Source: Rhodospirillales bacterium
GTDB lineage: Bacteria; Pseudomonadota; Alphaproteobacteria; Rhodospirillales; GLO-3
Assembly (NCBI GenBank): GCA_003354135.1
Contig: PIVK01000004.1
Location: forward strand, 31,187 to 95,186
Length of the DNA: 64,000 nucleotides
Direction of reading: 5' to 3'
Below are positions 25,476 through 55,485 of the stretch, in pieces. Position numbers and translations under genes: made by a program. Positions within the stretch are counted from its first letter, which is position 1. Each line of letters begins with the position of its first letter. The notes beneath the pieces were generated by a model. That model did not search any database and was not told the origin of the DNA. It saw only the letters and a program-made list of their open reading frames with translations.

Positions 25476-25479
25476 TGTG

Positions 25480-35306: not shown

Positions 35307-35330
35307 TCATCTGTTTGGAAGTTCCCCGCG

Positions 35331-36179: not shown

Positions 36180-38885
36180 CTAGGACACGTACGATACCTT
36201 CGACGCCGGGGTCCGCGTATCCATGTTGCGGCCGCGGTTCATGTGATCGTCGATCTCACCCGCGCAGCCCGTCATACGACCGAACAGGAAGGCGGTGAAG
36301 GCCGCCGTCTCCAGAGACGCCTCAGAGTAGTCGCCCGAGATGTAGCGCGGCCAGAGCAGCTTCAGCAGCAAAGCGGCGATGACCGCATCGATGTTCACGC
36401 AGAACACGTTCTTGGTCACGCCGGCGTCAAACAGCGCCTGAGCCACGTTCTGATAGAAGTCGTGGAAGATGTTGTACTCATTGCGTTTCTTGAACAACTC
36501 GTCAATAAACACCTCGCGCGGGTCCTTGTTGACCACCTTGCCCTTGAAGACCGGATGGTTGACGCCCGGAATGTTGCGCACACTCTCGCCGGCCACCTTG
36601 CGGGCCTTCTTGTCGTCCCCGAACGCGGTGGCATAGGCCTCCGCCATCTGCTTCAAATCGAGGCCGTGTTTGGGATTGGCCGCATCGTCGAGGCCACGGC
36701 CCTTGAAGTTCTCAATCAGGAACTGGATACCCTCGTAACCGTTGCCTCCGTGGGCAAAGCCGGTATGGGTCAGGAAGCCGACCATGGACTTGTTGATCTG
36801 CACCCGCTCCGGACTTTCTGGACCGTCTGCGGCCACACCGCCCTTGGCGCCCTGGGCCGAGATTGTGCCGACACCATTGGAGATCAGCAGCCCCAAAAGA
36901 ACCTGGAAGGGGAAGAGGATCTCCGGCGTCGGCTTCTCGTTGGCCAAAGCCAGGTACGCCAGTTCGGTCATCGTCCACGACTCCATGATCTGTTTCATGG
37001 GGATGCCGTTGAATTTATCCTTTTTGTGCTCCTTGCCGGGCACCGTAACGCCGATCATCAGGGCGTGGCAGCGGATGTACCAAGGCAAATTGTAGACCGT
37101 AAGGCGCGAGACGCGTTTGCGCATCAGCGGGCTCCAGGCGATGGTCGTGGTGATCGCCGCCAGGACCGCGTCCGCGGTGATGTGGCCTTTGATGCCGTGC
37201 AGAAAGTCGGTGAAGACCGAACTCGCCTTGCGCTTCCTGATCGCATCCAGCATGGCCAGGGCCTTGGGATCGGCTGACTCGCCGGTGAGGGCCGCAAGCT
37301 GCTCCTTGGTCGGCTTGATGACCGGCAGCTTGAACTTGGTGTCCGTGCCGTCCATGAGCCCTAAGTGGGCAAAAAGGTCTATCAGGACGTCGGCCGCTTT
37401 GCGCGCACCATCGACCGCTTTGGGGCCGAGAATGCTGGTGGCCGCCGCTAGGACGCTGTTGGGCGCGTTGCCTGCGGCCCGGGCCGCGTCGGCGGCTGCC
37501 AGCGCGGGATCACCCATCATATTGACGTAGGCGGCGATGGCCGTATTCATCAGCGCGTTGTCGTTGGGGCCGTTGTCCTGTTCCAGCAGCACCATGCAGG
37601 CGTTGGACTCCAGCGGCAGACTGGAAAGATCGAGAATCGAACGGCCGAAGATCTTGGTGACCTGGGTCTTGGCATCCATGATCGAGCAGCCCGAGGAATC
37701 CTTCATGGACTGGCGCGGGTAGCTGGTGCCGACCGACTTGCCAATGGCCGCAATCTGGTCGTCATAAGGCGACAGAGCCTTGACGATGGGCAGGTCCAGC
37801 TCCGTGGGCAGCTTGATCCCCTGGTTGTTGCCGAACCACGGCTTGAGTTCAAGGTTGCCCTCGGGCGGAAAGTCGGGTTCGACTCCATTCAGGGCCATGA
37901 CCTCGGTCAGAGCCGCCGGGATGTGAGAGATGTTGATCACCACCGCGCCTTGGGCCGACACCACCGGGTTGTCGGGAGTGAATATCTCATCCACCCCGAA
38001 CTGGTCCATGCACCACTTCTCCTTGGCCGCAGCGTCGTCGCCCGAACCGGCGATGGCGCCCGCGTGACCCACGGCGCGGGTCAGCTTGGCCTTCCATCGA
38101 CCGACCACGCAGGCGACCGTCGGCTTGGTCAGATTCAAGTCCTGTTCGTAGTACCCGCCGGGTTCGACGTACATCACCGCGCCCTTGGACCGGGCGTCGT
38201 TGGCCAGGCCGTGGGCCCATTCGGCGGGCGCATAGTGGATGTAGACGTCTTTACCGCTGGAGACCAGCGTCGTCGTGCCCCAGCCGGAAAGACCGAGGTA
38301 GTTGGCGATGGTGGTGGTGAAGTTGCCCGAGTTGGAGTAGATCGCAATGCAGCCCTTGCGCAGCGTCTCCTCGGGCTTGTCGCCACCCAGCGCGCCACCG
38401 AAGCGCACATGGTTCCAGGAGTCGGCGATGCCGAGGCAGTTGGCGCCGAAGACGTCGACGTTGCCCTGCTGACCCAGCGCCCGGATTTCGCGCGCATCGT
38501 GCACCGAAACTTTCTCGGTGAGGATTATGACCTTCTCCAGATCCGAATTGACGCGGATCAGCTCGGCCACGCCGTCGCGGACGCCGGCCGGCGGCAGATA
38601 GACGACACCGACGTTGAACCGGTGCCCGGCCTCCATGCCCTCACGCACGTTGTTGTAGACCGGGATGTCACCAACTGCGGTCTCCAGGACCTGGCCGGCG
38701 CGGCCCGGCGAGGTGCCGAAGAGTACGTTGCCACCAGAATAGGCGTGGCTGATCGGAGTCACGGTGCGTGACTCGCCCCCCAGGATGTTGAGGACGCAGA
38801 TGCGGTCCTTGCGGGTCGCGAGTTGCGCCAGCGAATCGACGCCGACGAAGTAGTTGGGGAATGCCTGAATACCCTGCTTTTTCAT
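36180..38885 (-). CDS. aclA: ATP-citrate lyase alpha-like large subunit (succinyl-CoA-synthetase-alpha-like domain fused to a citrate-synthase/citryl-CoA-lyase-like domain), 901 aa
   Basis: Contains the phosphohistidine loop RAVGHAGAIAG, a CoA-ligase alpha-like N-half, and a C-terminal GVNHPVFKGKVVNKDPR (citrate-synthase GHxVxK..DPR-type motif). ATG 38885 is preceded by AGGGAG. Confidence 0.75.
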   Translation of the reverse strand: MKKQGIQAFPNYFVGVDSLAQLATRKDRICVLNILGGESRTVTPISHAYSGGNVLFGTSPGRAGQVLETAVGDIPVYNNVREGMEAGHRFNVGVVYLPPAGVRDGVAELIRVNSDLEKVIILTEKVSVHDAREIRALGQQGNVDVFGANCLGIADSWNHVRFGGALGGDKPEETLRKGCIAIYSNSGNFTTTIANYLGLSGWGTTTLVSSGKDVYIHYAPAEWAHGLANDARSKGAVMYVEPGGYYEQDLNLTKPTVACVVGRWKAKLTRAVGHAGAIAGSGDDAAAKEKWCMDQFGVDEIFTPDNPVVSAQGAVVINISHIPAALTEVMALNGVEPDFPPEGNLELKPWFGNNQGIKLPTELDLPIVKALSPYDDQIAAIGKSVGTSYPRQSMKDSSGCSIMDAKTQVTKIFGRSILDLSSLPLESNACMVLLEQDNGPNDNALMNTAIAAYVNMMGDPALAAADAARAAGNAPNSVLAAATSILGPKAVDGARKAADVLIDLFAHLGLMDGTDTKFKLPVIKPTKEQLAALTGESADPKALAMLDAIRKRKASSVFTDFLHGIKGHITADAVLAAITTTIAWSPLMRKRVSRLTVYNLPWYIRCHALMIGVTVPGKEHKKDKFNGIPMKQIMESWTMTELAYLALANEKPTPEILFPFQVLLGLLISNGVGTISAQGAKGGVAADGPESPERVQINKSMVGFLTHTGFAHGGNGYEGIQFLIENFKGRGLDDAANPKHGLDLKQMAEAYATAFGDDKKARKVAGESVRNIPGVNHPVFKGKVVNKDPREVFIDELFKKRNEYNIFHDFYQNVAQALFDAGVTKNVFCVNIDAVIAALLLKLLWPRYISGDYSEASLETAAFTAFLFGRMTGCAGEIDDHMNRGRNMDTRTPASKVSYVS

Positions 38886-38913
38886 CTCTGATATCTCCCT
38901 GTCCGCCGGTCGC

Positions 38914-40224
38914 TTACTTCTTGGCCTTGCGGGGCTTGACCCGCGCATCGTCCGCCGGAATGCCGAGCAGCTTGCCGACTTCCACGCGTCCGCCGTTCTC
39001 CATCCACTCGTCGGCCTTCTGGGCGTAGTGGACCACGTCCGTCATCGCCGAGTCGAAGCCGAAGATGCGATAGGGAAGACGGAGCGCATCCAGGGTGTCC
39101 TTGAAATAACCCATACCGCGGATCACCTGCGGTCCACCGCGACCGATAACGACATAAAGCGGGGCCGGGCCGTGTTCCGAAAAGTGTTCTCGAAGTGAAT
39201 CCGCAATGGCGCGGAAGGTAATGTAGATGTCCGTGTTGTTGGCCTTGCCGCCGATCAGGAACAGCACGTTGGACTGGGCCAGCCAGTACTTGAGGCAGAT
39301 CCGCGACACCTCGCGCATCTTGGCATACGGCGGGTTGCCGCCGAAGTCCGACGAGATGATGGCGTCGTCGCCCAGGCCTTCAGAGACCAAAGAGTTGGCG
39401 CCGCCGCCGAAGGTCGGGGCGAGGATGGTGCCCTTCTCGTTGATGACGTAGACGTCGCTCTGACCCTGGTAGGTCCGGAGTTGGTTGATCTCCTGTTCGA
39501 AGTCCGAGTGGTCGGCGGCGAACAGATCGTCCGGCAGGTTGGCACGTGCGACGCGTGGATCGTCTCGGTCAAAGCCGCACTTGAAGTCACAAGCGACCGG
39601 CGAAAGATAACCGGGCCGGCTCACCGTCATACGGATCGGGTTCAGCTCCAGCGTCGTCATGCCATAAAGGTGGAACAGGTCCCACAGCTTGGGCAGCTGC
39701 TGCACCAACGGCGAGACAATCTCCTTCGGGGCGCCCAAGTCGGACAGCGCGTTGGCGATGACGAAGGACTTGAGACCGGTCAGGGGATCGAAGGGGATCT
39801 CGACGATCTTACCCTTCGGCAGTTCCTCGATGTCCGTGCCGCCGTGATGGGTCAGCGTGATGGCCGGTGCCCGGTAGCGCGTCGAGTCCGAGATCGAGAA
39901 GTAGACCTCGTAGTCGGCCGGCACGCCGCCTTCGAAAGTGACACCGTTGGCTTTGGCTGTGGCGTTGCCATGCTTGTGCTCGACGAAATAGAGTCGCTCT
40001 TTTTCCGCCAGCGCGGTCCGCATGTCCTTGGCGCGGCCAAGCAAACCTGCCTTGCCTTTCTTGCCGACGCCGCCTTTGAAGATAGGCTTGACGAAAACCT
40101 CGCCGCAGCGCTCGATCAGTTCCTTAATCTCGGCGTCACTCGCCTCGGACCCCAACACTTCTGCAGAGGGGAACCCCACCTGCTTCAAAAGCTTGGAACC
40201 ATAGAGCATTCCGGTTACTTGCAT
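38914..40224 (-). CDS. aclB: ATP-citrate lyase beta-like subunit (ATP-grasp, succinyl-CoA-synthetase-beta-like)
   Basis: 436 aa with an ATP-grasp-like N-half (VFVKPIFKGGVGKKGKAGL). ATG 40224 is preceded by AAGGGGGAG. It lies immediately upstream of the alpha-like subunit. Confidence 0.7.
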   Translation of the reverse strand: MQVTGMLYGSKLLKQVGFPSAEVLGSEASDAEIKELIERCGEVFVKPIFKGGVGKKGKAGLLGRAKDMRTALAEKERLYFVEHKHGNATAKANGVTFEGGVPADYEVYFSISDSTRYRAPAITLTHHGGTDIEELPKGKIVEIPFDPLTGLKSFVIANALSDLGAPKEIVSPLVQQLPKLWDLFHLYGMTTLELNPIRMTVSRPGYLSPVACDFKCGFDRDDPRVARANLPDDLFAADHSDFEQEINQLRTYQGQSDVYVINEKGTILAPTFGGGANSLVSEGLGDDAIISSDFGGNPPYAKMREVSRICLKYWLAQSNVLFLIGGKANNTDIYITFRAIADSLREHFSEHGPAPLYVVIGRGGPQVIRGMGYFKDTLDALRLPYRIFGFDSAMTDVVHYAQKADEWMENGGRVEVGKLLGIPADDARVKPRKAKK

Positions 40225-40395
40225 TTCTACTCCCCCTTGGCCTCTCCCGACGTTCAGCCTGCTGGAAAGACGCCGACCACAGACAGCCGGCATTCAGGTC
40301 AATAAAAGCGGTTATCCTTCCCGATTTCCCCGGATCGTAATATGAGAAAAGGCTAAGATACAGACTTTTCTCCAGGGAATTTCGGCATGGTCGCC

Positions 40396-41220
40396 TTAGT
40401 ACTCCTGCGGCAATTCCTTAAGATCCGCCCACGAATAAACGGGCCCCTTGGTGCAGACATAGTCCTTGCCCACATTGCAGCGGCCGCATTTGCCGATGCC
40501 ACACTTCATCTTATTTTCGATGGTGGTGTAGATCTGCGTGTCCTCGAAGCCCGCCCCTTTCAGGTTCTGGATCACGAACTTGATCATGATCGGCGGGCCG
40601 CAGGTGATGGCGATGGCGTTTTTGGGCGACGGGCTCTTGTCCATAACATTGGTGGGCACAAAGCCGCAGAACTCGTTCCAACCCTCCTCCTCGCTGTCGA
40701 TCGAAAGGTGCACCTCCGCATCACCGCGTAGCTTCTCCAGCTCCTTGGCATACATGATATCGCGGGATGAACGGCCACCGTAGAAGACGGTGATGTCCTT
40801 GAAATCCTTACGTTGCAACACCGCAGTCTGGATAATAGGCCAGATCGGGGCCAGGCCGCAGCCGCCGCCGATGAAGATCAGGTTCTTGCCCTTCCAGTCT
40901 TCGACCGGGAAGTTGTTGCCATAAGGACCACGGACGCCGATGACATCGCCTATTTCCATATCATGGATGGCCGTCGTCACGCGGCCCACCCGCATAATGC
41001 TGAATTGCTTGTATTCCTTGATCAGCGGCGAGGAGGCGATGGAAATCATCGACTCGCCTTTTCCGAATACCGACAGCATGGCGCACTGGCCGCACTCGTG
41101 GTCGAAACCGTCACCGTTGACGAATTCGACACGGAAGGTCTTGATCGCGCGGGCACCCTCGACCTCGGAGTTGACGTCGATGATACGCCCCATCTTCGGA
41201 AGATAAATATTATCCGACAT
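40396..41220 (-). CDS. FAD/NAD(P)-binding oxidoreductase with C-terminal [2Fe-2S] (sulfhydrogenase gamma / AsrB / FlxA-like)
   Basis: A ferredoxin-reductase-type fold (FIGGGCGLAPIWPI) and the C-terminal CGIGKCGRCNVG cluster motif. Confidence 0.75.
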   Translation of the reverse strand: MSDNIYLPKMGRIIDVNSEVEGARAIKTFRVEFVNGDGFDHECGQCAMLSVFGKGESMISIASSPLIKEYKQFSIMRVGRVTTAIHDMEIGDVIGVRGPYGNNFPVEDWKGKNLIFIGGGCGLAPIWPIIQTAVLQRKDFKDITVFYGGRSSRDIMYAKELEKLRGDAEVHLSIDSEEEGWNEFCGFVPTNVMDKSPSPKNAIAITCGPPIMIKFVIQNLKGAGFEDTQIYTTIENKMKCGIGKCGRCNVGKDYVCTKGPVYSWADLKELPQEY

Positions 41221-42253
41221 CGTGAGCCACCTTGTTCACGACCGCGACGATGTCGATGCCCACCGGGCATTCGCTGATACACCGGCCACAGCCGACACAC
41301 TGATACGTATCGTGGTTTTGGACAAAATAGAGGAACTTGTGACAGACCCGCTGTCTCAGCCGCGCCCCCAGCGTGTTGCGTGGGTTGTGACCCGACGAGT
41401 GCATGGTGAAGTCCGGGAACTGGCAGTTGTCCCAGGTGCGGACCCGCTGTCCTCGTAGCGGGGTTACGTTGGTCACTTCGTCGTTGATGTCGAAGCAGTG
41501 GCACGTCGGACACAGGAAGGTGCAGATGCCGCAGCCGATGCAGGCCTGCGCCATTTCACCCCAGACCTCGGAATCGAAGTTTTTTTGCAGATTCTCGGGG
41601 ACCGTCTTGATGTCGACAATCTCGCGCATTGGGGCCTTTTCGGCGTCGGCCTTGGCCTTGGCGGCCGTTTTCTTGTCGGCCGCCGAAGCGTTACCCAACG
41701 CCTTGCCGCCGGCCTTGACGATCTCCTCGCCGACCTTGGTCAGCGCTTTGACGAGATAGCTGTCACCGAGATCGACCATCAGGACGTCGAGACCGTCCTC
41801 GGAGTGCGGCGACCCGCCGACGGCGGTGCAGAAGCAGTTGCGCGACGGCGGCGTGTTGCAGGCGAGGCCCACCTGGGCCACCTTCTTGCGCCGCATCCAG
41901 TAATAGATGTCGTCGAATTCCTTGCTGAAGACCGTGTCGTTACGCGGACCTGCTCGTCCGTCACACGGCCGAACACCGAACACCACCTTGGGCGCCGCCA
42001 GGGCGGGCAGGGTCTCGGTCACCATCGGCGCCTCGCCCTTCTTCTGTGCAAACTCGCAGTAGACCTCGCGCTGCGGGAATGAAAAATCCTTGGGCGGCTT
42101 GACCGTATTGGTGTGGTCCAAAGCCGCGTCTTCGGGCTTTTCGACCTGCTTGAAATTCCACACCTCGTCCTCAAAAGCGGGCGCGTGGACTTCATACGAC
42201 GAGAGTGCGATCACCCAGTCGCGCAGGTTGTCTTTTTTCAGTACCTTTTCCAT
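41210..42253 (-). CDS. 4Fe-4S dicluster protein (sulfhydrogenase beta / AsrA / FlxB-like)
   Basis: Contains CIGCGICTFLCPTCHCFD and CVGCGRCISECPVG. It overlaps the downstream flavoprotein gene by 11 nt. Confidence 0.7.
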   Translation of the reverse strand: MEKVLKKDNLRDWVIALSSYEVHAPAFEDEVWNFKQVEKPEDAALDHTNTVKPPKDFSFPQREVYCEFAQKKGEAPMVTETLPALAAPKVVFGVRPCDGRAGPRNDTVFSKEFDDIYYWMRRKKVAQVGLACNTPPSRNCFCTAVGGSPHSEDGLDVLMVDLGDSYLVKALTKVGEEIVKAGGKALGNASAADKKTAAKAKADAEKAPMREIVDIKTVPENLQKNFDSEVWGEMAQACIGCGICTFLCPTCHCFDINDEVTNVTPLRGQRVRTWDNCQFPDFTMHSSGHNPRNTLGARLRQRVCHKFLYFVQNHDTYQCVGCGRCISECPVGIDIVAVVNKVAHDVG

Positions 42254-42257
42254 GGGG

Positions 42258-43319
42258 CTACCTGATGAAATCGTTGGGATCGTCGTCGCGGAACGAGGAC
42301 ACGAAAGAAGGCTGCCCGGGATCCATGCCGACGTCGTAGCCGAAGGTATCCTTGGCCTCGAAGTCGAGGACGCTGTTGAGCAGACGGACCGGAATGTTCA
42401 CCGGACACACCCGTTCGCATTCGCCGCAATCGACGCAGCGCCCGGCCAGGTGCATGGCGCGAACCAAGTGATAGCCGATGTTCTCCGACGTGGTGGCGGA
42501 GCGCTCGATCCACTTGATGCGGTTCGCCTTCTCTTCCGCAGAAGTGTCCTGGAGGACGTGCATGTTGATGCTGTCGACGACACACTCCTCGCAATAACAC
42601 ATGGGGCAGACCGAGCGGCAGGCGAAGCAACGAATGCAGCGATCAAAATGATGTCCCCAGAACTTCCACTTGTCGGCCGTCGAGCCTTCGTCGACCGTCT
42701 TGATGGCGGCGAAGGCATCGGCAAGGCCGCGATCCTCGACCGCCTCGCCGAATTCGTCGTCGAAAATGACGGGGTGAGGATGGCGGCACTCGAGGCACCG
42801 ATCGGCCATCACGTCCTTGGCGGCGACCTTCACGGTCTCGCCCGAGGTGGTGGTGACCTTGTAGCCGTTGCCGTCGAATTCCGTCTTCTCCGCCTGCAGG
42901 CCCTTGAGCTTCTTGGCCAACTTGTAGCGGTCCACCATGCCGGTTCCCTCGCAAGACACGCCCAACACGTGGATGTCGTCGCGAGGGAAGTAGTTCTCCT
43001 GAAGCAGCACGTTGACGGCACGCGTGTCACATCCCTTGGCAACGATAGCCAAGCGCTTGGACTTGTCTTCGCCCCCGGGAGCCGCTCCGTGGCCGTGCGC
43101 GGCCTTGGTTTGGCGCTTGCGCTCCTCCACCAGATAGAGGGCCAGGTTATGCACGCAGGTGGGGTCCCAGATCAAACCGTCCGCCTGATCCGCCTCGGTA
43201 ATAAATTTTGGGGACGCCAGATTGCCGGCCGTGCTCTCGATGAAGCCGACCACCGCCCCGACTTCGCCGTTCTCCAGCAGGGCTTTCGCCCGGTCCTTGA
43301 TGTCTTGAAGGTTGACCAT
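42258..43319 (-). CDS. Fe-S cluster protein associated with Hdr/Mvh-type complexes (FlxC-like)
   Basis: Contains CIRCFACRSVCPMCYCEEC and CVDCGECERVCPVNI. Its start shares one nucleotide with the MvhD stop (TGATG). Confidence 0.65.
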   Translation of the reverse strand: MVNLQDIKDRAKALLENGEVGAVVGFIESTAGNLASPKFITEADQADGLIWDPTCVHNLALYLVEERKRQTKAAHGHGAAPGGEDKSKRLAIVAKGCDTRAVNVLLQENYFPRDDIHVLGVSCEGTGMVDRYKLAKKLKGLQAEKTEFDGNGYKVTTTSGETVKVAAKDVMADRCLECRHPHPVIFDDEFGEAVEDRGLADAFAAIKTVDEGSTADKWKFWGHHFDRCIRCFACRSVCPMCYCEECVVDSINMHVLQDTSAEEKANRIKWIERSATTSENIGYHLVRAMHLAGRCVDCGECERVCPVNIPVRLLNSVLDFEAKDTFGYDVGMDPGQPSFVSSFRDDDPNDFIR

Positions 43320-43741: not shown

Positions 43742-43780
43742 GGGGGCGGACTCCAACCACTTTATCCGTTTCTCTTCACG

Positions 43781-45730: not shown

Positions 45731-45776
45731 CGAGTCACCTCACGCTTATCCTTGGTGCAATCCAACTCACAGGGCC

Positions 45777-46334: not shown

Positions 46335-47347
46335 TTCTTCTTCGCCCGGCTGGCCGGGGCCTTCTTCTTCGCCGCTGTCTTCTTGGCCGGGGCTTTCTTT
46401 GTCGGGGCCTTGGCCGCGACCTTCTTCCCGAGGTCCTTTTTTGCCTTTGCAGCGTCCTTCTTGTTGGCTTCCTTCTCAGGCTCGGTCTCGCCGTAAAGCT
46501 GATAGTCGTCACCGATAACGTTGGTCAGACGGTCGTTCACCGCCTCAAGGAAGGTCGGCTTCTGCTTCTCGACGAACTTGCCCATGATGATCTTGCCCTG
46601 GAAGTCGATATCGGTTTCCCGCGTATCGATACCGTGCTTGATCTCGGCGTTGTCGTGGTAGTACTGCAGCGCCTTGACGCCGTCACCCAGCCTGTTGCGG
46701 CGCAGATAGAGCGTCGTGCAGGGCGTGATGACTTCGACAAAGGAGAAGCCCTTGTGGTTCAGCGCCTCCTGGATCGACGTTGTGATGCGACGCGCGTGCA
46801 GCGAGGTCCAGCGGGCCACGTAGGTCGCGCCGCAGGCGTCCGCCAGGAACGGTAAGCTGAACGGGTATTCATAGTTACCGTAGGGTGTCGTCGATGCGTT
46901 GGCCGTAATAGGCGTGGTCGGAGTCAACTGGCCGCCCGTCATGCCGTAGGTGAAGTTGTTCACGCAGATGACGGTGATGTCCATATTGCGGCGCGCGGCG
47001 TGGATGAAGTGGTTGCCGCCGATGCCGGTCAGGTCGCCATCGCCGGAGACCACCACGACCTTCATGCCGGGGTTGGCCAGCTTGAGTCCGGTTGCCAAGG
47101 GAATGGCGCGGCCGTGCGTCGCGTGGATCGAGTCCATCTTGACGTAGCCCGCGACACGGCCGGTGCAGCCGATGCCGGATACGACGGCCACGTTGTCAAG
47201 GTCCATCTCGTTGCGCTTCAGCGCCTCGGCGAACGAGGTGACGACCGTTCCAATGCCGCAGCCGGGGCACCAGATGTGGGGCATCCTTTCCATACGAAGG
47301 AAGCCGGCCATGGGGTTTTCAGTTGCGAAGCGGGATTCGTCGCTCAT
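46331..47347 (-). CDS. 2-oxoacid:ferredoxin oxidoreductase beta subunit (TPP-binding) with a Lys/Ala-rich C-terminal tail
   Basis: Contains WCPGCGIG and the TPP motif SGDGDLTGIGGNHF...NN. The last 46 residues contain 18 Lys and 14 Ala. Confidence 0.85.
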   Translation of the reverse strand: MSDESRFATENPMAGFLRMERMPHIWCPGCGIGTVVTSFAEALKRNEMDLDNVAVVSGIGCTGRVAGYVKMDSIHATHGRAIPLATGLKLANPGMKVVVVSGDGDLTGIGGNHFIHAARRNMDITVICVNNFTYGMTGGQLTPTTPITANASTTPYGNYEYPFSLPFLADACGATYVARWTSLHARRITTSIQEALNHKGFSFVEVITPCTTLYLRRNRLGDGVKALQYYHDNAEIKHGIDTRETDIDFQGKIIMGKFVEKQKPTFLEAVNDRLTNVIGDDYQLYGETEPEKEANKKDAAKAKKDLGKKVAAKAPTKKAPAKKTAAKKKAPASRAKKK

Positions 47348-48480
47348 TTTGCTGCCTCCTCAATGGCGGCCAGGATGACATTGGGATCATGGACGGCACC
47401 ACCGCAATGGGGAACGCTGATCACCTTGCACTGACCGCCCACGATGCGCTCCACTTCGAGGACCATCTGTCCGTAGTTGATTTCGGGCATGATGATCGCC
47501 TTGACGTTCTTGGCGATTTTGCGCACCTGGTTTTCGGCGAAGGGCCAGCAGGTGATAAGCCGCATGGCGCCCACCTTTAGACCCTTCCTGCGCGCATCCT
47601 GAACCGCTTTAACGGCGATACGCGACGTGATGCCGTAGGAGATGACGACCACCTCCGCGCCATCGATCTGATCCTCCTCGACACGAACGATCTTGTCGCG
47701 GTTACCGTCGATCTTCTCGATCATGTGGGTAACCACGATCTCGTTCTGCTTCGGATCCATCAACGGATAGCCGCGTTCGTCGTGGGTCAGGCCGGTGATG
47801 TGGAAACGGTACCCCTCGCCCGCCTTGACCATCGGGGCCGGAACTCGGTCCTTCTCGAAGCGGTAGGGCAGGTATTTGTCCTTGGGACCGGTGTACCAAT
47901 TGCGCTCGACGACCTCGATATCCTTGGCCTCGGGGATGTCCACGCGCTCGTGCATGTGGCCGACCGTCTCGTCGGTCATGATGAAGACCGGCACGCGGTA
48001 GGTCTCCGACAGGTTGAAGGCCTCGACGGCAAGGTCAAAACACTCCTGCGGGCTGTCGGGCGAAAGCGCGATCACGCGGTAGTCACCGTGCGACCCCCAG
48101 CGGGCCTGCATCATGTCCTGCTGCGCGGTCTGCGTCGGCAGGCCGGTCGAAGGACCGCAACGCTGCACGTTGGCAATAACCATCGGAGTCTCGGTCATGG
48201 CGGCCAAGCCGATGTTCTCCATCATCAGCGAGAAACCGGGACCCGAGGTCACGGTCATGACCTTGCGACCGCCCCAGGCGGCGCCGATAAGGGCCGCGAC
48301 CGAAGCGATCTCGTCCTCCATCTGGATAAACAGGCCACCCGCTTCGGGGCAGCGCTCGGCAAACCGTTCGGCGGTTTCGGTGGAGGGAGTAATGGGGTAT
48401 CCGGCAAAGAAACGACACCCCGCAGCGAGGGCTCCTTCGGCAAGGGCATGGTCTCCGTCGAGGAAATGGGACCCCGACAT
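47344..48480 (-). CDS. 2-oxoacid:ferredoxin oxidoreductase alpha subunit
   Basis: Contains FFAGYPITPSTE and GPSTGLPT. I preferred ATG 48480 (GAAGGG upstream). The alternative, ATG 48534, would add a basic 18-aa extension and overlap the delta gene. Confidence 0.85.
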   Translation of the reverse strand: MSGSHFLDGDHALAEGALAAGCRFFAGYPITPSTETAERFAERCPEAGGLFIQMEDEIASVAALIGAAWGGRKVMTVTSGPGFSLMMENIGLAAMTETPMVIANVQRCGPSTGLPTQTAQQDMMQARWGSHGDYRVIALSPDSPQECFDLAVEAFNLSETYRVPVFIMTDETVGHMHERVDIPEAKDIEVVERNWYTGPKDKYLPYRFEKDRVPAPMVKAGEGYRFHITGLTHDERGYPLMDPKQNEIVVTHMIEKIDGNRDKIVRVEEDQIDGAEVVVISYGITSRIAVKAVQDARRKGLKVGAMRLITCWPFAENQVRKIAKNVKAIIMPEINYGQMVLEVERIVGGQCKVISVPHCGGAVHDPNVILAAIEEAAK

Positions 48481-48505
48481 TACGCCCTTCGGATCTGCGG
48501 CGACT

Positions 48506-48760
48506 TTACGCACTTTGCTTCTCCTCTTCGTCATACGTCACGTAAATCGCGAATTCAGGGCAAACGATTTCGCAGAAATGACAGTTGCGACACTGATCGG
48601 CAGTCTTCACATAAGGGGGGTGATACCCCTTCTTGTTGTAATCTGGAGATATCTCCAGGACGTTGGTCGGGCAATATTCGACGCAGAAGCCGCAGCCCTT
48701 ACACCAATCATTTTTGATGTGAACCTCGCCAAGTGCCGGTTTGATTTTCCCGAAGAACAT
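48506..48760 (-). CDS. 2-oxoacid:ferredoxin oxidoreductase delta subunit (2 x [4Fe-4S] ferredoxin)
   Basis: Contains CKGCGFCVEYCP and CRNCHFCEIVCP. ATG 48760 is preceded by GAGGAG. Confidence 0.8.
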   Translation of the reverse strand: MFFGKIKPALGEVHIKNDWCKGCGFCVEYCPTNVLEISPDYNKKGYHPPYVKTADQCRNCHFCEIVCPEFAIYVTYDEEEKQSA

Positions 48761-48770
48761 AGCTTTCTCC

Positions 48771-49652
48771 TCAGAGCAGACCTTTGTCTGCCAAGACGGG
48801 TTTCGGGTCGATGTGGTGGAGATCCAAGCGCAGGTCCTCCTCGTCCGAGCAGCCAAGCGCCAAGGCCATCAACTGCGTGAAATAGACAACGGGCATGTTC
48901 TTGAAATCCGGGAAAAGTTCCCGGGTCTGCTCCTGACGGTTATCCAAATTGAAGGCGCACAGCGGGCAACTGACGGCAACGATGTCGGCTCCCTGGGAGC
49001 TGGCGTTACCAACGATCTTGTTAGTCTGTTCGGCCACGATCCCGGGCTTGTCGACCGTTTGATAGGACGCGCAGCACTCGGTCTTCATCGCGAAATCGAC
49101 CGGGGTTCCGCCCAGGGCCGTCACCAGGTCTTCCATGATGGTCGGATTTTCGGTGTCGTCGATGGCCGCTTCCTGCGGACGTACCAGCATGCAGCCGTAG
49201 TAGCAGGCGACTTTGAGTCCTTCGAGGGGCTTCTCGACCCTTGCTGCGATGTCCTTGAACCCGAACTCGTCACGCAGGAACTCAAGCAAGTGAAAAACGT
49301 TGACGTCGCCCTCGTAATCCACGTCCTCAAGGTACATGAAGTCGTTGAGCCGATCCTTCGCCTCGTTGTCCCGCTTCACATGCTCGTTGGCCCTTTTGAG
49401 GGTGTTGTAGCACATGGAGCAGACCGTCATGAGTTGGTCGGTGCCCGCTTCCTTGGCCCGGATCAAATTGCGGACCGGAGCCATGCGATTCATCAGGTTG
49501 TCGGAGGTGAGCGAGTGGACGGTGCCGCAGCAGTTCCACCGCGTAAGCTCCTCGACCTCGACGCCCAAGCGCTCCATGGCCGAAAACGTCGAGTCATCGA
49601 AGTTTTTGGCATGGTTCTTAAGCGTACAACCGGGATAGTAGCTAAGCTTCAT
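48771..49652 (-). CDS. HdrB-like protein with two CCG (Cys-rich) domains (also the SdhE / TfrB C-terminal type)
   Basis: Contains YYPGCTLKN...NCCGTV and YYGCMLVRP...ECCASY. I placed the start at ATG 49652, inside the longer ORF. Confidence 0.75.
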   Translation of the reverse strand: MKLSYYPGCTLKNHAKNFDDSTFSAMERLGVEVEELTRWNCCGTVHSLTSDNLMNRMAPVRNLIRAKEAGTDQLMTVCSMCYNTLKRANEHVKRDNEAKDRLNDFMYLEDVDYEGDVNVFHLLEFLRDEFGFKDIAARVEKPLEGLKVACYYGCMLVRPQEAAIDDTENPTIMEDLVTALGGTPVDFAMKTECCASYQTVDKPGIVAEQTNKIVGNASSQGADIVAVSCPLCAFNLDNRQEQTRELFPDFKNMPVVYFTQLMALALGCSDEEDLRLDLHHIDPKPVLADKGLL

Positions 49653-49678
49653 CACTACTTCTTCTTCTACCGTGTAAT

Positions 49679-49937
49679 ACCAAGGTGCGGTGATAATGAC
49701 CCATAGAGACGGCTTCCCCTGATTTTTGGCTAGGAGCGCGCATCGAAGCGATGTGAGGCATCGGGAGATGCGTGCGACGCGATCCAAAAGTCAGGGGAAA
49801 CCGCCGTTCCGGTCGCTTATACAGCCCGTCGGAGGGCGTCGGGAAGCCTTGACGATGCGCCGCATCGCCTGCGTCTTTCCTCCTACCCGACGGGCTGTAT
49901 AAGTGATCTCTATGGGTCATTATCACCGCACCTTGGT
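49679..49937. repeat. 259-bp nested-palindrome element with perfect 31-bp terminal inverted repeats (MITE-like element or structured intercistronic RNA)
   Basis: 49679-49709 is the exact reverse complement of 49907-49937. The inner stems are 49710-49729 with 49784-49803 (20 bp, 1 mismatch and 1 G-T) and 49816-49832 with 49887-49903 (17 bp, perfect). Confidence 0.9.
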
Positions 49938-50270
49938 TAACCTACATCCTTCAGCGGGAGGAGACGGCAGGGTTAAAATGAGACAGCGGCGCCCGATCAA
50001 TGCTCTTCGGCAGTGTGCAACGAATAAATTACTCCGTTACATCGCCGAGATAATTACGGACAGTTGTTCTTGAATTAGTATTCAAAAACGAACTTGATGC
50101 CCTAGCCCCAGTCTCCCATACCTTCTTTTTCTACAACCACTTTCCTCCCTTGAAAAGCAGCCGACTTAGTCTCTTTTACATTGGCTTCCCTTTTACGGGA
50201 GGCCGGTTGTATTATTGAGGACGTCCGACGAGACGAACAACCCCGGGTATAACTGTCTCACGGTCGCGCA

Positions 50271-50675
50271 TCAGGAGGTAAACTTCCTCATGGCGCTGAT
50301 CAACGCGATCGGCGGCAGGTTCTCGCCCGGGTTGGGCAGTTCCTGAACCACCAAGTGATCCTTTCTCTGGCGCAAGTTGATCTGACGCAAGGCCTCGATG
50401 GTGCCGGCGATGTTGACGCCCTTAGGGCACCGACTGTCGCAAGTGAGGCACGAGACGCAAAGCCAGATGGCCTTGGAATTCAGCAGCTGATCCTGCATGC
50501 CGAGCTGAGAAAGGCGGATAATCTGGTTGGGCAAGATGTCCATATGGGGCCCCATCGGACACCCGGCGGAACAGTTGCCGCACTGGTAACAGGCCAGAAG
50601 ATTCTGGTCGGCCAGTTTCTCGACCTTCGAGACAAACTCCGTCGAGGCCTTCGTGGGGGAGATGCTTACATGCAC
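50271..50675 (-). CDS. HdrC-like 4Fe-4S dicluster protein
   Basis: Contains CYQCGNCSAGCP and CVSCLTCDSRCP. GTG 50675 has GAGGGAAGGA 8 nt upstream. The longer ORF to 50912 would overlap the upstream gene. Confidence 0.7.
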   Translation of the reverse strand: MHVSISPTKASTEFVSKVEKLADQNLLACYQCGNCSAGCPMGPHMDILPNQIIRLSQLGMQDQLLNSKAIWLCVSCLTCDSRCPKGVNIAGTIEALRQINLRQRKDHLVVQELPNPGENLPPIALISAMRKFTS

Positions 50676-50691
50676 GGTCGCTGTCCTTCCC

Positions 50692-51228
50692 TCAGGCGTT
50701 TTCCATGTTCGGCGTGAAGTCGCCCATGTCGACCCACACACCCATGTTCTCGACACTATCCATCTGGCTCTGGAGAAGGTCGTAGTGAAATCTCTCCTCG
50801 TCAGCCAGCTTCTCGGCGTACTCGCGGACCTTGGGGTCCTTGGTGCGCTGGATAAGGTTTTCAAAATTGGCAATGGCGCGGCGTTCCATATCCATGGCGA
50901 TGCGGAGCGCATCGGAATCGCCGGCCAGTTCTCCCTTCTTGCGCTTGCGTACGGCTTCGTCGAGTTCGTCGACCAACCCGGAACGTCCGCCCTTGGCCTT
51001 CACCTCTTCCACGATAACCTTCCAGCCCTCGTTGCCGACGATGGGGGCGAAGATGCAGCCCAACTCGTCGGTATGCCCAGCCTCTTCCTTGGAGAGACGT
51101 TCGAACATGGCCTTGCCGTCGCGGTTTTCCGTCACGGCAGCGGCGCGCTTATAGAACTTCTCACCGTTGATCTCCAGGTCGACGGCCTCGCGGATAAGAG
51201 CGAGAATTTGTTCATCGATCTGCGTCAT
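50692..51228 (-). CDS. Ferritin-like diiron protein (rubrerythrin family without a rubredoxin domain; erythrin-like)
   Basis: Two E...ExxH pairs are present: EINGEKFY with EEAGH, and MERRAIANF with EERFH. Confidence 0.65.
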   Translation of the reverse strand: MTQIDEQILALIREAVDLEINGEKFYKRAAAVTENRDGKAMFERLSKEEAGHTDELGCIFAPIVGNEGWKVIVEEVKAKGGRSGLVDELDEAVRKRKKGELAGDSDALRIAMDMERRAIANFENLIQRTKDPKVREYAEKLADEERFHYDLLQSQMDSVENMGVWVDMGDFTPNMENA

Positions 51229-51260
51229 CTACCATCTCCACCCGTTCGAGTCGCAAGCCG

Positions 51261-52976
51261 TCAGCCAGACATCTTCTTCGGTGCAACCCCACCACCCAAC
51301 ATGCCGGTGCTGGCCGGCATCTGGTTGCAGCGCGCATGGCGGCGTGCCTTGACGTCTTCCGGCGCGTATGACGGCAAGAGAACCGGGGTCACCAGATCGG
51401 TCTTGATCTTGGCCTTTTTGATCTCGGCGTCGTACTTGGCGACGTGCTCGAGGCTGAGCGACTTGCCCAGCTTCGCCTTCTTGACGTACTCGCTGGTATA
51501 GATTCCGGCGCGGCGACCGAACACGTTGTAATCCAACACCGAATTACCCATAAGGCGGTTGCGTCCGTGCAGACCGCCGGTCGCCTCACCAGCCACGAAC
51601 AGGCCCGGAATGTCGGTCTCGCAACGCTCGTTGATCTCGATGCCGCCGTTCTGGTAGTGCAGCGACGGGTAGATCAGCATCGGCAACTCGGTGATGTCCA
51701 TTCCGTAGTTGATGTACTGGCGGTACATGGCCGGGAACTGGTGGGCCACATAACCCTCGCCGTGGATGGAATCGATCAGCGGGCTGTCCAGCCACACGCC
51801 GAGCCGCCCTGAAGGCGTTTCGATGCCGCCACCGTTTTGCAGACATTCGCGGATGATGGCCGAGGCCTCGATGTCGCGCGGCTCGCGCGGGAACACGAAC
51901 AGCTCTCCGTCCTTGTCCAGCGGCTGGCCGCCGGCACCACGGATCTTCTCGGTGATAAGGAAGCCTGCGATCTGCTCCGGGAAAACGGCGCCCGTCGGGT
52001 GGTACTGGACCGAGTCCATGTACATGAGCTTGGCTCCGGCCCGGTAGGCCATGACCAAGCCGTCACCCGTCGCACCATAGTGGTTGGTGGTGTCGAAACC
52101 GCGAATATGCAGCCGCCCGAAGCCGCCGGTGGCAACCAGGGTGGCCTTCGCCTTGACGGTGACGAACTCTTCCGTGTCGAGGTCGTAAAGCACGGCACCA
52201 GCACACTGGCCCTTGTTGTCGAGGATCAGCTCGACCGCCGGCATGAATTCGCGCACGGTGATCTTATCGGGGTTGTTGTGGACCTCGTCCATCAGGGAAC
52301 GCATGATGATGGCGCCCGTGTAGTCGCGGGACGACAGCATACGCTTGCGCGACGTGCCGCCGCCATGCAGCACCTGCAGCGAGCCATCCTCTTCCTTGTC
52401 CCAGATGACGCCCAGATCCTCAAGAGCCTTGACCACCTCGGGCCCATCCTCGGTGAGGGCCCGGACCAGTTCCGGCTTGTTCTCGAAGTGGCCACCGCCG
52501 ATGGCATCCAAGTAGTGGTGGGTTGGCGAGTCAGTGGAAGAGACCGCCGCCTGCATGCCGCCCTGCGACATCATGGAATTGGCGTCGCCCATGCGCAGCT
52601 TGGTGGCAATCAGCGACTTGACGCCGTTCTGCATGGCGACGATGGCCGCCTGGCAGCCGGCGCCGCCGCCGCCGATGATCAAGAGATCGGTCTCGTAGTC
52701 CGGCTTCTTGAGGTCGAACTTCTTGGCGTCGACCCAGGAATGGGACTCGAGCATATCCGCAACCTCGGTAGTCAGAGTCTCGCCCTTGTTGGGACCGACC
52801 CGGACCTTGCAGCGCGCATCCTTCTTAAAATCGGGATGAAAACCCTTAAGAACGTCCGCGCGCTCTTCGGCGGTCATCGGCGGATAGACGGGATCGGGCT
52901 TCTTGGCCAGTTCTAAACGCCTGGGCCTAGTCTGCTCAACCTTCTTCAGCGAAGTCGACATATAATCTGGATACAT
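51261..52976 (-). CDS. Fumarate reductase / succinate dehydrogenase flavoprotein-family subunit (soluble type, predicted non-covalent FAD)
   Basis: Contains the FAD site LLIIGGGGAGCQAA. NSMMSQGG stands where the histidyl-FAD enzymes have HTVAAQGG. There is an N-terminal extension of about 95 aa. ATG 52976 is preceded by GGGAGG. Confidence 0.75.
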   Translation of the reverse strand: MYPDYMSTSLKKVEQTRPRRLELAKKPDPVYPPMTAEERADVLKGFHPDFKKDARCKVRVGPNKGETLTTEVADMLESHSWVDAKKFDLKKPDYETDLLIIGGGGAGCQAAIVAMQNGVKSLIATKLRMGDANSMMSQGGMQAAVSSTDSPTHHYLDAIGGGHFENKPELVRALTEDGPEVVKALEDLGVIWDKEEDGSLQVLHGGGTSRKRMLSSRDYTGAIIMRSLMDEVHNNPDKITVREFMPAVELILDNKGQCAGAVLYDLDTEEFVTVKAKATLVATGGFGRLHIRGFDTTNHYGATGDGLVMAYRAGAKLMYMDSVQYHPTGAVFPEQIAGFLITEKIRGAGGQPLDKDGELFVFPREPRDIEASAIIRECLQNGGGIETPSGRLGVWLDSPLIDSIHGEGYVAHQFPAMYRQYINYGMDITELPMLIYPSLHYQNGGIEINERCETDIPGLFVAGEATGGLHGRNRLMGNSVLDYNVFGRRAGIYTSEYVKKAKLGKSLSLEHVAKYDAEIKKAKIKTDLVTPVLLPSYAPEDVKARRHARCNQMPASTGMLGGGVAPKKMSG

Positions 52977-53071
52977 ATGCGCCTCCCACAACGCGCTAAT
53001 CGATTCCGTAGGACGGATGGGCCGCCCCTGTGGTGTCTTCCTGTTCGTTTAAGCTCTTGCCGGCCGGGAAC

Positions 53072-53812
53072 CTACTCCATGTCCCTGGCATAGTAGCGAT
53101 CCGAGAGCTCCTTCTTGCTCATCGACATGAGTTCCTTGTACTCGGCGTCGAAGGCGCCCTTCTTGACGTCACGGAGCCTTTTGGCAAGCTCCTTGCTCTC
53201 CTTGCGGAGGTAGCGGCCGTAAAGCCTCTTGGCCAGCATGCCGACGGCGGGCTGAGTGATTTCGGCGGGGCAGCGTATGGTACACATCTGGCAGCCGACG
53301 CAATCGAACGACAGGTCCATGACCTTCGCGACGTCGCCGCGCATGGCCGCGTTCACGTAATCCATCACCTGTAGGCCCTGGACACATGCCTTGGTGCAGG
53401 TGTTGCAGGACACGCAGCGGAACACCTCCGGGTAGTATTTCCGGAAGGCCTCGACACCGGGCTTAACTTTCTTGATGTCGTAGATTTCTTTCCGGGCCGG
53501 TATCGACGGGAACTGCGCCAGGCTCATGCCGGGCTTAACCAGTGTCATGCAGGCTAGGCCCATGTGCATTTTATAGTCGCCGGGCATGCGGTAGACCGTC
53601 GCGCAGGCGCCGCAGTAGCCTTCCCGGCAACCCGCGCCGCGAACGATCGTATGGCCCGCATATTCAATAGCACCCATGATGGTCGCGTCCGACGGGACCT
53701 GAGCCGCTTTGCCCATGATATAGACGGTCACCATCTCGGCAACGGCGTCGGCCTTTCCCTTCTGCCGACGGCTCAGCGCGGATTTGGCTTTAGCTGCTTT
53801 GCCCTTGATCAT
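53072..53812 (-). CDS. Fumarate reductase / succinate dehydrogenase iron-sulfur-subunit-like protein with a basic N-terminal extension
   Basis: Contains [2Fe-2S]-type CREGYCGACATVY, then CVSCNTCTKAC and CVGCQMCTIRCP. ATG 53812 has GGGAGG 6 nt upstream. The first 20 residues carry 6 Lys and 2 Arg. Confidence 0.7.
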   Translation of the reverse strand: MIKGKAAKAKSALSRRQKGKADAVAEMVTVYIMGKAAQVPSDATIMGAIEYAGHTIVRGAGCREGYCGACATVYRMPGDYKMHMGLACMTLVKPGMSLAQFPSIPARKEIYDIKKVKPGVEAFRKYYPEVFRCVSCNTCTKACVQGLQVMDYVNAAMRGDVAKVMDLSFDCVGCQMCTIRCPAEITQPAVGMLAKRLYGRYLRKESKELAKRLRDVKKGAFDAEYKELMSMSKKELSDRYYARDME

Positions 53813-55464: not shown

Positions 55465-55485
55465 AGATTCCGGGGAGCCCAACAC

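Follow-up and report, generated by a model that had tools for sequence, protein, structure and literature searches.

How do bacteria that run the reductive tricarboxylic acid (rTCA) cycle on reductant at the level of NADH supply 2-oxoglutarate synthase with electrons of about -500 mV? This standing question is raised by a cluster of 16 genes at positions 36180-53812 of a 64,000-nucleotide stretch of contig PIVK01000004.1 from a Rhodospirillales bacterium (assembly GCA_003354135.1), the whole of which is called the window here. The cluster combines genes for a soluble fumarate reductase, a 2-oxoacid:ferredoxin oxidoreductase and a putative ATP-citrate lyase (ACL) of type II with a Hdr/Flx redox set. 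It is a new alphaproteobacterial copy of a system known since 2019 from tubeworm symbionts and purple sulfur bacteria (Chromatiaceae), and on balance it probably works by the NADH-bifurcating mechanism proposed for that system. If this is true, the exergonic fumarate reduction of the cycle would, by bifurcation, pull the endergonic carboxylation of the same cycle, and the responsible proteins would form a new class of flavin-based bifurcating enzyme. As the idea was already published in 2019, the window does not open the question. New here are the occurrence of the cluster in the genomes of at least 69 species drawn from the Alpha-, Beta- and Gammaproteobacteria, its modularity and a 13-gene version lacking ACL, and these comparative results sharpen the question by revealing a set that is conserved through rearrangement across phyla and in which ACL is dispensable.

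The listing of open reading frames (ORFs) together with Pfam and NCBIfam scans places all 16 genes on the minus strand, transcribed in the order frdB, frdA, rbr, hdrC, hdrB, korD, korA, korB, korG, hdrA, mvhD (flxD), flxC, flxB, flxA, aclB, aclA. A preliminary description made from the letters of the window had given the same order and the single strand, which the scans reproduced, and had counted 15 genes, a miscount since its own list holds 16 names. It had also proposed annotation by profile hidden Markov models; this was carried out and returned matches by profile, PDB or fold for all 16 proteins, evidence by which all the predicted gene assignments are supported. Start codons were picked by the ribosome-binding site and by the point where alignments with homologues begin. 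On these starts, 12 of the 15 junctions are overlaps or spacers of less than 50 nt, in line with what had been said of most of them, and the overlap motifs named earlier are all present: ATGA at 47344-47347 (korA/korB) and at 46331-46334 (korB/korG), TGATG at 43317-43321 (mvhD/flxC), and an 11-nt overlap of flxB and flxA, ATGTCGGATAA, at 41210-41220. A wider spacing separates frdB from frdA (about 95 nt), flxA from aclB (about 171 nt) and hdrC from hdrB (618 nt). By its position only, the 473-nt intergenic region between the divergent genes frdB and lptF (53813-54285) is presumed to hold the promoter of the cluster. A scan for promoter and terminator consensus sites found them no commoner than in a shuffled control, so that the operon structure is not readable from the sequence, and no Rfam family reached its gathering score anywhere in the window.

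The preliminary description had held that this exact combination of genes was not characterised as a unit, which is wrong. Rubin-Blum, Dubilier and Kleiner reported type II aclAB, korABCD, tfrAB, rbr and flxABCD-hdrABC as a conserved rTCA cluster in the tubeworm symbionts Ca. Endoriftia persephone and that of Escarpia laminata, in Thioflavicoccus mobilis and in the aquifer metagenome-assembled genome (MAG) RIFOXYD12_FULL_61_37 (2019, mSphere, PMC6315080), and proposed in Supplementary Note 3 a complex that bifurcates NADH electrons directly to 2-oxoglutarate:ferredoxin oxidoreductase (OGOR) and fumarate reductase. The locus of that aquifer MAG (L021 in the present collection) has the identical 16-gene order, with 57-77% protein identity to the window. 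In Endoriftia, shared expression and intergenic reads are consistent with an operon (Mitchell et al., 2024, Nat Microbiol, PMC11636981), and a survey of 2026 repeats the bifurcation hypothesis (PMC13147460). Alphaproteobacteria, Betaproteobacteria and Aminicenantes are not mentioned in the supplements of the 2019 paper, and the literature search found no report of the Aminicenantes version treated below.

How would such a complex work? In the first step NADH would deliver its electrons to FlxA, from where Fe-S clusters in FlxB, FlxC and FlxD (MvhD) would carry them to HdrA and its bifurcating flavin adenine dinucleotide (FAD). In the second step HdrA would part each electron pair. In the third, the high-potential electron would go to HdrC (and HdrB) and on via FrdB to FrdA, where fumarate would be reduced to succinate. 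In the fourth, the low-potential electron would reach KorD, either directly or via free ferredoxin, and KorABG would carboxylate succinyl-CoA to 2-oxoglutarate. In the fifth, the type II ACL, a ligase like citryl-CoA synthetase (CCS) fused to a lyase of citrate-synthase fold, would split citrate to yield acetyl-CoA plus oxaloacetate and so close the cycle. Homology is the basis of the first two steps; gene content, conserved linkage and thermodynamics are that of the last three. The direction of the electron flow, the existence of a physical complex and any role in this organism are inferred.

The proteins for the first two steps are encoded completely, as FlxA, FlxB, FlxC and FlxD are all present. 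The electron entry point FlxA (40396-41220) is predicted to be an NAD(P)H/FAD/[2Fe-2S] subunit (PF00175, PF10418; HydG/AsrB-like matches of 1e-53 to 1e-64), FlxB (41210-42253) an Fe-S subunit like sulfhydrogenase beta and AsrA (PF17179; ShyB/HydB 2e-52; PDB 9nez_B 3e-48), and FlxC (42258-43319, 353 residues) a polyferredoxin/FrhB-like subunit that has Fer4 families, a weak FrhB_FdhB_C match and no NCBIfam match, and is conserved in all loci compared below. The [2Fe-2S] adaptor of MvhD type (mvhD/flxD, 43319-43756, more likely to start at the ATG at 43741) matches PF02662 FlpD over its full length at 2.5e-51. HdrA (43781-45730, 649 residues) is of the full-length bifurcating type: it matches the HdrA2 model NF040770 at 1.6e-236, aligns end to end with the PDB chains 8rvu_a (8.7e-189) and 5odc_A (1.1e-183) and conserves the FAD motif VIGGGIAG and all cysteine motifs. 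Its scores lie under the equivalog cut-offs (787 bits against 1100 for HdrA2, 614 against 1400 for HdrA), and the protein is best taken as a bacterial relative, not a methanogen orthologue. HdrC (50271-50675, about 134 residues from a putative GTG start) is a 2x[4Fe-4S] protein with two CxxCxxCxxxC motifs (TIGR03290, 1.1e-22), and HdrB (48771-49652, 293 residues) is recognised by PF02754, by TIGR03288 at 1e-56 and by the PDB chain 7bkb_B at 1.1e-46.

Is the coupling energetically reasonable? The midpoint potentials are -320 mV for NADH, +30 mV for fumarate/succinate and about -520 mV for succinyl-CoA + CO2/2-oxoglutarate. From these textbook potentials we calculate about -29 kJ/mol for the reaction of 2 NADH with fumarate, succinyl-CoA and CO2, and the 1:1 stoichiometry of bifurcation fits the cycle, a single turn of which requires each of the two reductions exactly once. 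Flavin-based bifurcation can in principle also run backwards, and it could be imagined that electrons from 2-oxoglutarate and succinate merge at HdrA by confurcation and reduce NAD+, making a quinone-independent segment of the oxidative TCA cycle; the dimeric OGOR of related bacteria has indeed been proposed to be oxidative (PMC6315080, supplement). Run in this direction, however, the reaction would be endergonic by an estimated +29 kJ/mol or so at standard potentials, the close linkage to ATP-citrate lyase would make no sense in an oxidative cycle, and the Endoriftia cluster is co-expressed with other rTCA genes (PMC11636981), so that confurcating operation must be called very improbable.

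The preliminary description had also put forward a comparison of gene neighbourhoods. When the HdrA of the window was searched against a single genome for each GTDB species, the result was 70 loci (numbered with the prefix L), and in 69 of the 70 the kor and flx genes stand around hdrA in the same order, with flanks unrelated to those of the window. Since the order recurs in this way, the arrangement is not due to chance. The alphaproteobacterial hosts are Rhodospirillaceae strain LM-1 and related MAGs, Rhodomicrobiaceae, Hyphomicrobiales and Blastochloris sulfoviridis; the betaproteobacterial ones are Sideroxydans/Gallionellaceae, Rhodocyclaceae, Sulfuricellaceae and Hydrogenophilales; the gammaproteobacterial ones are Thiococcus pfennigii, Thiodictyon and other Chromatiaceae. 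One host MAG (L013) is labelled Ignavibacteria. The core hdrB-korDABG-hdrA-mvhD-flxCBA is invariant, kor always lying between hdrB and hdrA at median spacings of 10 and 5 nt (the hdrB-korD distance is about 10 nt in 60 loci), and aclBA follows directly on flxA in the window as well as in no fewer than 50 proteobacterial loci. One alphaproteobacterial MAG, MFD04428.bin.2.7, has two copies of the cluster on separate contigs (L016, L064), of which the second has diverged further and is recovered by tblastn partly as fragments. L001, L003 and L004 appear, going by the names of their records, to originate in magnetotactic-bacteria projects.

Around this core three architectures are found. Type A, frdB-frdA-(rbr)-hdrC-hdrB-korDABG-hdrA-mvhD-flxCBA-aclBA, is that of the window, of Betaproteobacteria and of some Gammaproteobacteria. 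Type B, about 35 of the 70 loci and mostly Alphaproteobacteria and Rhodocyclaceae, begins at hdrB with unrelated genes upstream and has no frdBA-rbr-hdrC in the roughly 6 kb upstream and 2 kb downstream that were covered (for example L005-L012, L015, L016, L025 and L031, with hdrB at about 6148). Type C consists of 13 genes, hdrC-hdrB-korDABG-hdrA-mvhD-flxCBA-frdB-frdA, with neither rbr nor aclBA, and occurs in two Aminicenantes assemblies and in each of the 30 metagenome contigs of 15 kb or more that were brought up by an Aminicenantes HdrB, 23 of which carry all 13 genes (loci L071, L072 and L074-L153; for example L074 9554-20876). Its proteins are 47-79% identical to those of the window, its flanks are unrelated housekeeping genes on both sides, and no ACL match lies within about 9.5 kb upstream. 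In Ca. Nitricoxidivorans (L073) a type A cluster follows tsaE-amiC, and amiC is followed by a cluster of type B in L009 and L012; because amiC thus borders frdB in the one case and hdrB in the others, the frd-rbr-hdrC module appears to have been gained or lost at one chromosomal site.

Could the genes merely travel together? A selfish operon would be transferred as a block while its enzymes work independently and the Flx/Hdr proteins serve an unrelated substrate. The similarity of cluster proteins to their Alpha-, Beta- and Gammaproteobacterial and Aminicenantes-type versions is about the same throughout (60-80%), the housekeeping protein Uup of the host is just 60-62% identical to its nearest named relatives, and the flanks differ in every genome; these three observations indicate horizontal spread. 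A mosaic origin, with frd resembling Betaproteobacteria and kor Alphaproteobacteria, was dropped, as the gap of just 5-8 identity points is too weak. Hitch-hiking pure and simple does not account for a content that is kept through at least two independent rearrangements and through the gain or loss of a module at one site (L073 versus L009 and L012), and it is unlikely, with only a slim chance of being the whole explanation. Because gene content is preserved through rearrangement, a shared function is suggested: the comparison points to fumarate reductase, OGOR and Hdr/Flx as the functional unit, with ACL as an addition. The earlier proposal that the cluster carries its own supply of low-potential electrons fits both this co-occurrence across phyla in shuffled order and the Endoriftia transcripts (PMC11636981).

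If ACL is an addition, is the unit a device for autotrophy at all? Alternatively, the core could be an NADH-driven module for the reductive branch, to which ACL was added in Proteobacteria, and could serve the supply of 2-oxoglutarate and glutamate, redox balancing or a citrate-synthase-dependent reversed oxidative TCA cycle (roTCA), with autotrophy not being required of the present host. The ACL-less type C is uniform in its 30 long loci (23 of them complete) amid unrelated flanks, the ORFs scanned in the window include no pyruvate:ferredoxin oxidoreductase (PFOR) and no other cycle enzymes, and some hosts belong to photoheterotroph lineages, for example Blastochloris and Rhodomicrobium MAGs. 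Yet aclBA stands directly behind flxA in at least 50 proteobacterial loci, and it is only the complete reductive cycle that requires ACL; moreover, rTCA activity and citrate cleavage are documented in the literature for organisms with type II ACL. We therefore regard this alternative as unlikely for the window, though well short of negligible.

How well do the enzymes at the ends of the proposed electron path fit their parts? All four subunits of a 2-oxoacid:ferredoxin oxidoreductase are encoded. KorD (delta, 48506-48760, 84 residues) is a 2x[4Fe-4S] ferredoxin-like protein retaining both [4Fe-4S] motifs; KorA (alpha, 47344-48534) matches NF006412 with 559 bits, above the cut-off of 411, and in the PDB 1yd7_A (1.8e-110) and the 2-oxoglutarate synthase alpha chain 8ys5_A (4.5e-85); KorB (beta, 46331-47347) is the subunit that would bind thiamine pyrophosphate (PF02775); and KorG (gamma, 45777-46334) belongs to PF01558 and scores 188 bits with NF006323 (cut-off 235). 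The OGOR-specific NCBIfam models remain under cut-off for alpha (NF007206, 382 bits against 579), beta (NF007207, 243 against 364) and delta (NF042987 OGOR_delta, 70 against 125). Kor may be specific for 2-oxoglutarate.

On the high-potential side, frdB (53072-53812) encodes a protein of 246 residues (Fer4_9, Fer2 and Fer2_4 in Pfam) that is predicted to serve a soluble fumarate reductase of Tfr type as its Fe-S subunit; its cysteines form one set of 2Fe-2S type and two CxxCxxCxxxC motifs. The TfrA-like flavoprotein FrdA (51261-52976, 571 residues) matches PF00890 at 2.4e-72 and SdhA/FrdA entries of the PDB; its ATG is preceded by the ribosome-binding site GGGAGG, and the database protein P0243 is a 100% match at 571 residues, the longest ORF beginning at a TTG at 52991. 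The TfrB model NF004898 is tiled consecutively in sequence by FrdB (23-183), HdrC (183-221) and HdrB (256-485), all under equivalog cut-offs, and because of this tiling the three proteins jointly appear to be the counterpart of one methanogen TfrB. Between frdA and hdrC lies rbr (50692-51228), which encodes an erythrin-like diiron protein of four-helix-bundle type (178 residues; PF02915, 4.8e-11) with two ExxH motifs, one cysteine and no rubredoxin domain. It is found in Beta- and Gammaproteobacterial loci and is missing from the group of L001, L003, L004 and L068 as well as from type C; probably it shields the oxygen-sensitive enzymes of the cluster.

The last two genes encode the putative type II ACL, an enzyme that was postulated from the genomes of Magnetococcus and of tubeworm symbionts and is termed 'postulated' and 'putative' in the literature; citrate cleavage and rTCA activity are documented in organisms that possess it, the cleavage being known only as an activity of extracts. 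The small subunit AclB (38914-40224; the start at 40224 has the ribosome-binding site GGGGGAG, the longest ORF begins at 40293) has ATP-grasp and citrate-binding domains (PF16114 Citrate_bind with 55.8 bits, cut-off 26.8; PF08442 with 46 bits, also above cut-off), and its best PDB match is the large subunit of CCS (6hxq_B, 6.7e-32). In the large subunit AclA (36180-38885, 901 residues), whose start at 38885 agrees with the database protein P0001 so that the longest ORF of 922 residues is not the gene, a CoA-ligase module precedes a diverged lyase domain of citrate-synthase fold. The phosphohistidine motif GHAGA (H274) aligns with CCS and succinyl-CoA synthetase (SCS) and is invariant in 26 homologues. 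Foldseek with an AlphaFold2 model of AclA found the alpha chain of the Chlorobium limicola ACL (6hxj) at E 9e-9 over 675 columns, and citrate synthases at a TM score of about 0.6. H712, H777 (NHPVF...DPR) and D833 (VNIDA) are invariant among homologues, and we take them to resemble the catalytic His/His/Asp motifs of citrate synthase, which is a lead from motifs and not a computed residue alignment. By sequence both subunits are nearer to CCS 6hxq (E 1e-31 to 1e-32) than to ACL chains (E 1e-7 to 1e-16). AclBA would be a candidate for citrate cleavage, an activity that is read from sequence and fold.

The non-coding gap between hdrC and hdrB (49653-50270, minus strand, 618 nt) lies exactly at the boundary between the modules of type A and type B. 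The distance from hdrC to hdrB has a median of 20 nt over 29 loci; the four closest loci, of Rhodospirillaceae type, have gaps of 273-507 nt, and L035 (Rhodocyclaceae) has one of 223 nt. The gap of the window holds a palindromic element of 259 bp (49679-49937) resembling a miniature inverted-repeat transposable element (MITE), with two inner hairpins nested between terminal inverted repeats that match perfectly for 26 nt (for 31 nt according to BLAST); as RNA/DNA it is predicted to fold into a Y shape with -162.8 kcal/mol and z = -14. Further copies were found neither in the window nor in the 70 loci, for which reason a multicopy MITE was dropped; the metagenome collection gave no exact match to the terminal repeats, and no clear target-site duplication was seen by eye. 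The element could be a MITE, or a structure for processing or termination between hdrC and hdrB. The corresponding regions of L001 (5760-6162), L003 (5790-6159), L004 (5651-6159) and L068 (5900-6174) all have, in front of hdrB, a conserved stretch of about 100 nt (…CCCACACGAAAGAGATA…GAGGGTGTTTC…TCTCGTATGGCAACA…), which has no Rfam match and is absent from the gap of the window; neither this gap nor its equivalent in L001 has an Rfam match beyond chance level. In L001 and L068 a terminator-like GC-rich hairpin with a run of T follows just after hdrC.

Which observations weigh against the NADH-bifurcating mechanism? Among the Kor subunits KorA is the sole one above a curated cut-off, and this on a generic alpha model. 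The best NCBIfam model for FrdA, TfrA NF004900, is reached with 339 bits under a cut-off of 718. The lyase domain of AclA is known by its fold alone, because the C-terminal 600 residues have zero Pfam matches even at E <= 10 and the profile search of the PDB recovered the N-terminal module alone; the AlphaFold2 model in which the fold was seen has a mean pLDDT of 69.5, with high pLDDT in the C-terminal part. About 35 flanking ORFs searched with Pfam contain no PFOR, aconitase, isocitrate dehydrogenase, fumarase, malate dehydrogenase or succinyl-CoA synthetase, and of the 'compact rTCA island' of the preliminary description the clustering of three rTCA enzymes therefore stands, the word island being overstated as other cycle genes are absent from these ORFs. 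As type B demonstrates, Frd and HdrC are not obligatory neighbours of the core, and the mechanism does not account for a wire from HdrA to HdrB that does without HdrC. HdrB has two complete CCG motifs of five cysteines each (9/41/42/78/81 and 154/193/194/229/232), and their intactness is easier to reconcile with a thiol/disulfide intermediate than with a wire that is purely direct. The tfrAB genes are the exception to the shared differential expression of the Endoriftia cluster (PMC11636981). Because of this exception, of the 618-nt gap with its stable palindrome and of the hairpin in relatives, two transcription units, frdBA-rbr-hdrC and hdrB...aclA, are plausible. Finally, the literature search found no purification or enzymology of any enzyme of this cluster type, the complex having only been hypothesised.

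Several of these points bear on the main rival, in which no megacomplex exists and the coupling is indirect: a free-standing Flx/Hdr NADH:ferredoxin/disulfide enzyme would reduce soluble ferredoxin, to be used by OGOR, and a disulfide at HdrB, the resulting thiol being oxidised by the Tfr-like fumarate reductase. Desulfovibrio FlxABCD-HdrABC has been proposed to be such a bifurcating enzyme (PMC6315080, supplement), and indirect coupling is named as an alternative in both PMC6315080 and PMC11636981. The CCG motifs, which in methanogen HdrB form the disulfide-reducing site, are fully conserved, FrdA is nearest to the thiol:fumarate reductase TfrA, and type B keeps hdrB where frdBA and hdrC are not nearby. 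Against it, a gene for a thiol carrier (for example DsrC-like) or for ferredoxin is found neither in the cluster nor among the scanned flanking ORFs, and the constant tight insertion of kor between hdrB and hdrA is hard to explain by diffusible carriers. Moreover, we know of no coenzyme M or coenzyme B in bacteria, and the host should accordingly have no CoM-S-S-CoB to reduce. We consider indirect coupling rather unlikely, while bifurcation of NADH electrons by this known type of cluster is still held to be the probable reading. More tentatively, though conceivably, the core, hdrC and frdBA might form one soluble megacomplex, an NADH-driven and fumarate-pulled bifurcating 2-oxoglutarate synthase that operates without free ferredoxin or thiol carrier; such an enzyme would be older and wider than its proteobacterial rTCA context, would function without ACL in Aminicenantes-type bacteria, and would have gained or lost its fumarate arm at the hdrC|hdrB joint.

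Cultured hosts offer test beds for these possibilities, namely Blastochloris sulfoviridis DSM 729 (L031), Thiococcus pfennigii (L014), Rhodospirillaceae strain LM-1 (L001) and Thioflavicoccus mobilis. Of these we take Thioflavicoccus mobilis, Thiococcus pfennigii and Blastochloris sulfoviridis to be phototrophs with bacteriochlorophyll b.

In what chromosomal surroundings is the cluster found? As the preliminary description had it, lptF, lptG, lptD, surA, pdxA and rsmA lie upstream, and uup and a GlcD-like FAD oxidase downstream. The Uup protein is 60-62% identical to those of Magnetospira, Novispirillum and Thalassospira and of some differently labelled MAGs, and the host would accordingly be placed as a Rhodospirillales-like alphaproteobacterium. 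In E. coli, holC-pepA on the minus strand and lptF-lptG on the plus strand are divergent immediate neighbours; in the window holC-pepA (19018-21036) and lptF-lptG (54286-56586) are 33 kb apart with the rTCA cluster in between. The decayed foreign patch reported beside the cluster was confirmed as a low-GC stretch with gene fragments (33495-36130, GC about 0.50, directly downstream of aclA). It contains an N-terminal HsdR fragment of 227 residues (33495-34178), a DUF5655 ORF (34287-35306), an N-terminally truncated response-regulator receiver covering only model positions 50-111 (35767-36027) and an ORF of 99 residues to which nothing could be assigned. The cluster itself has a GC content at third codon positions (GC3) of 0.74-0.84, equal to that of host genes, which rules out a recent island, only the region at 33.5-36.1 kb being compositionally odd. 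No tRNA genes are present in the window, and tblastx of both flanks against the 70 loci found nothing shared, so that no integration site could be defined. A second stretch of lower GC (23800-26100, 0.54-0.55) is perhaps another foreign patch; its ORFs at 23824-24540 (minus) and 25441-26079 (plus) have no Pfam match. At the far end of the window, Tad/Flp pilus genes (3531-6806; TadE/G-like, RcpC/CpaB) are ordinary and unrelated to the cluster.

How does the cluster compare with known systems? With that of the 2019 report (PMC6315080) it shares the families, the single orientation, the position of kor between hdrA and hdrBC and of tfrAB adjoining hdrBC. It differs in that the host is alphaproteobacterial and not gammaproteobacterial, in the 618-nt hdrC|hdrB gap with its palindromic insert, and, from the symbiont clusters, in lacking acn, idh, mdh, pntAB and rnf both inside it and in the flanking ORFs that the Pfam scans covered, being compact like that of the aquifer MAG. 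In comparison with Methanothermobacter TfrAB (NF004900, NF004898), TfrA is the best family of FrdA and the domain content of TfrB is present, whereas TfrB is split here over three genes with rbr inserted ahead of hdrC. A soluble five-subunit NADH-dependent fumarate reductase, FrdABCDE, is known from Hydrogenobacter thermophilus (Miura et al., 2008, as cited in PMC13147460). The present cluster is like it in encoding a soluble fumarate reductase of the rTCA cycle with electrons that would ultimately come from NADH, and unlike it in having no GltD-like FrdE among the 16 genes, NADH entering instead via FlxABCD-HdrA. In FrdABCDE, too, the FrdAB subunits are paired with HdrB/HdrC-like subunits.

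The methanogen complexes HdrABC-MvhAGD and Fdh-Hdr (5odc, 7bkb, 8rvu) resemble the cluster in HdrA from end to end and in HdrB (1e-42 to 1e-47), and the fused HdrA2-MvhD of Methanosarcina acetivorans (NF040770) is spanned by HdrA (1-641) and MvhD (642-776) together; unlike in methanogens, the donor here would be an Flx module of NADH type and not a hydrogenase, a formate dehydrogenase or F420H2. All seven protein families of FlxABCD-HdrABC of Desulfovibrio vulgaris (summarised in the supplement of PMC6315080) are present with intact cofactor motifs. In contrast to D. vulgaris, where the order is flxABCD-hdrABC, the genes here run hdrC, gap, hdrB, kor, hdrA, flxD, flxC, flxB, flxA, no alcohol dehydrogenase adjoins them, and the presumed high-potential acceptor would be fumarate via Frd and not DsrC. 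With OorDABC/KorDABG (PDB 8ys5; NF007205-NF007207) the cluster has the same four subunit families in common, whereas the top PDB match, 1yd7, is a 2-keto acid enzyme of generic kind and the genes are embedded amid hdr genes. Finally, AclB has the ATP-grasp and citrate-binding domains, and the N-terminus of AclA the CoA-ligase alpha module with its phosphohistidine motif, of both Hydrogenobacter thermophilus CCS (6hxq) and type I ACL (6hxj, 6hxi, 6qfb), and as in the type I ACL alpha chain the C-terminus of AclA is predicted to have citrate-synthase fold, the alignment spanning the whole chain. Unlike these enzymes, AclA has 901 residues with long inserts and a lyase domain invisible to Pfam, and in contrast to type I ACL of Chlorobium and human the closest sequence relatives of the pair are not bona fide ACL subunits.

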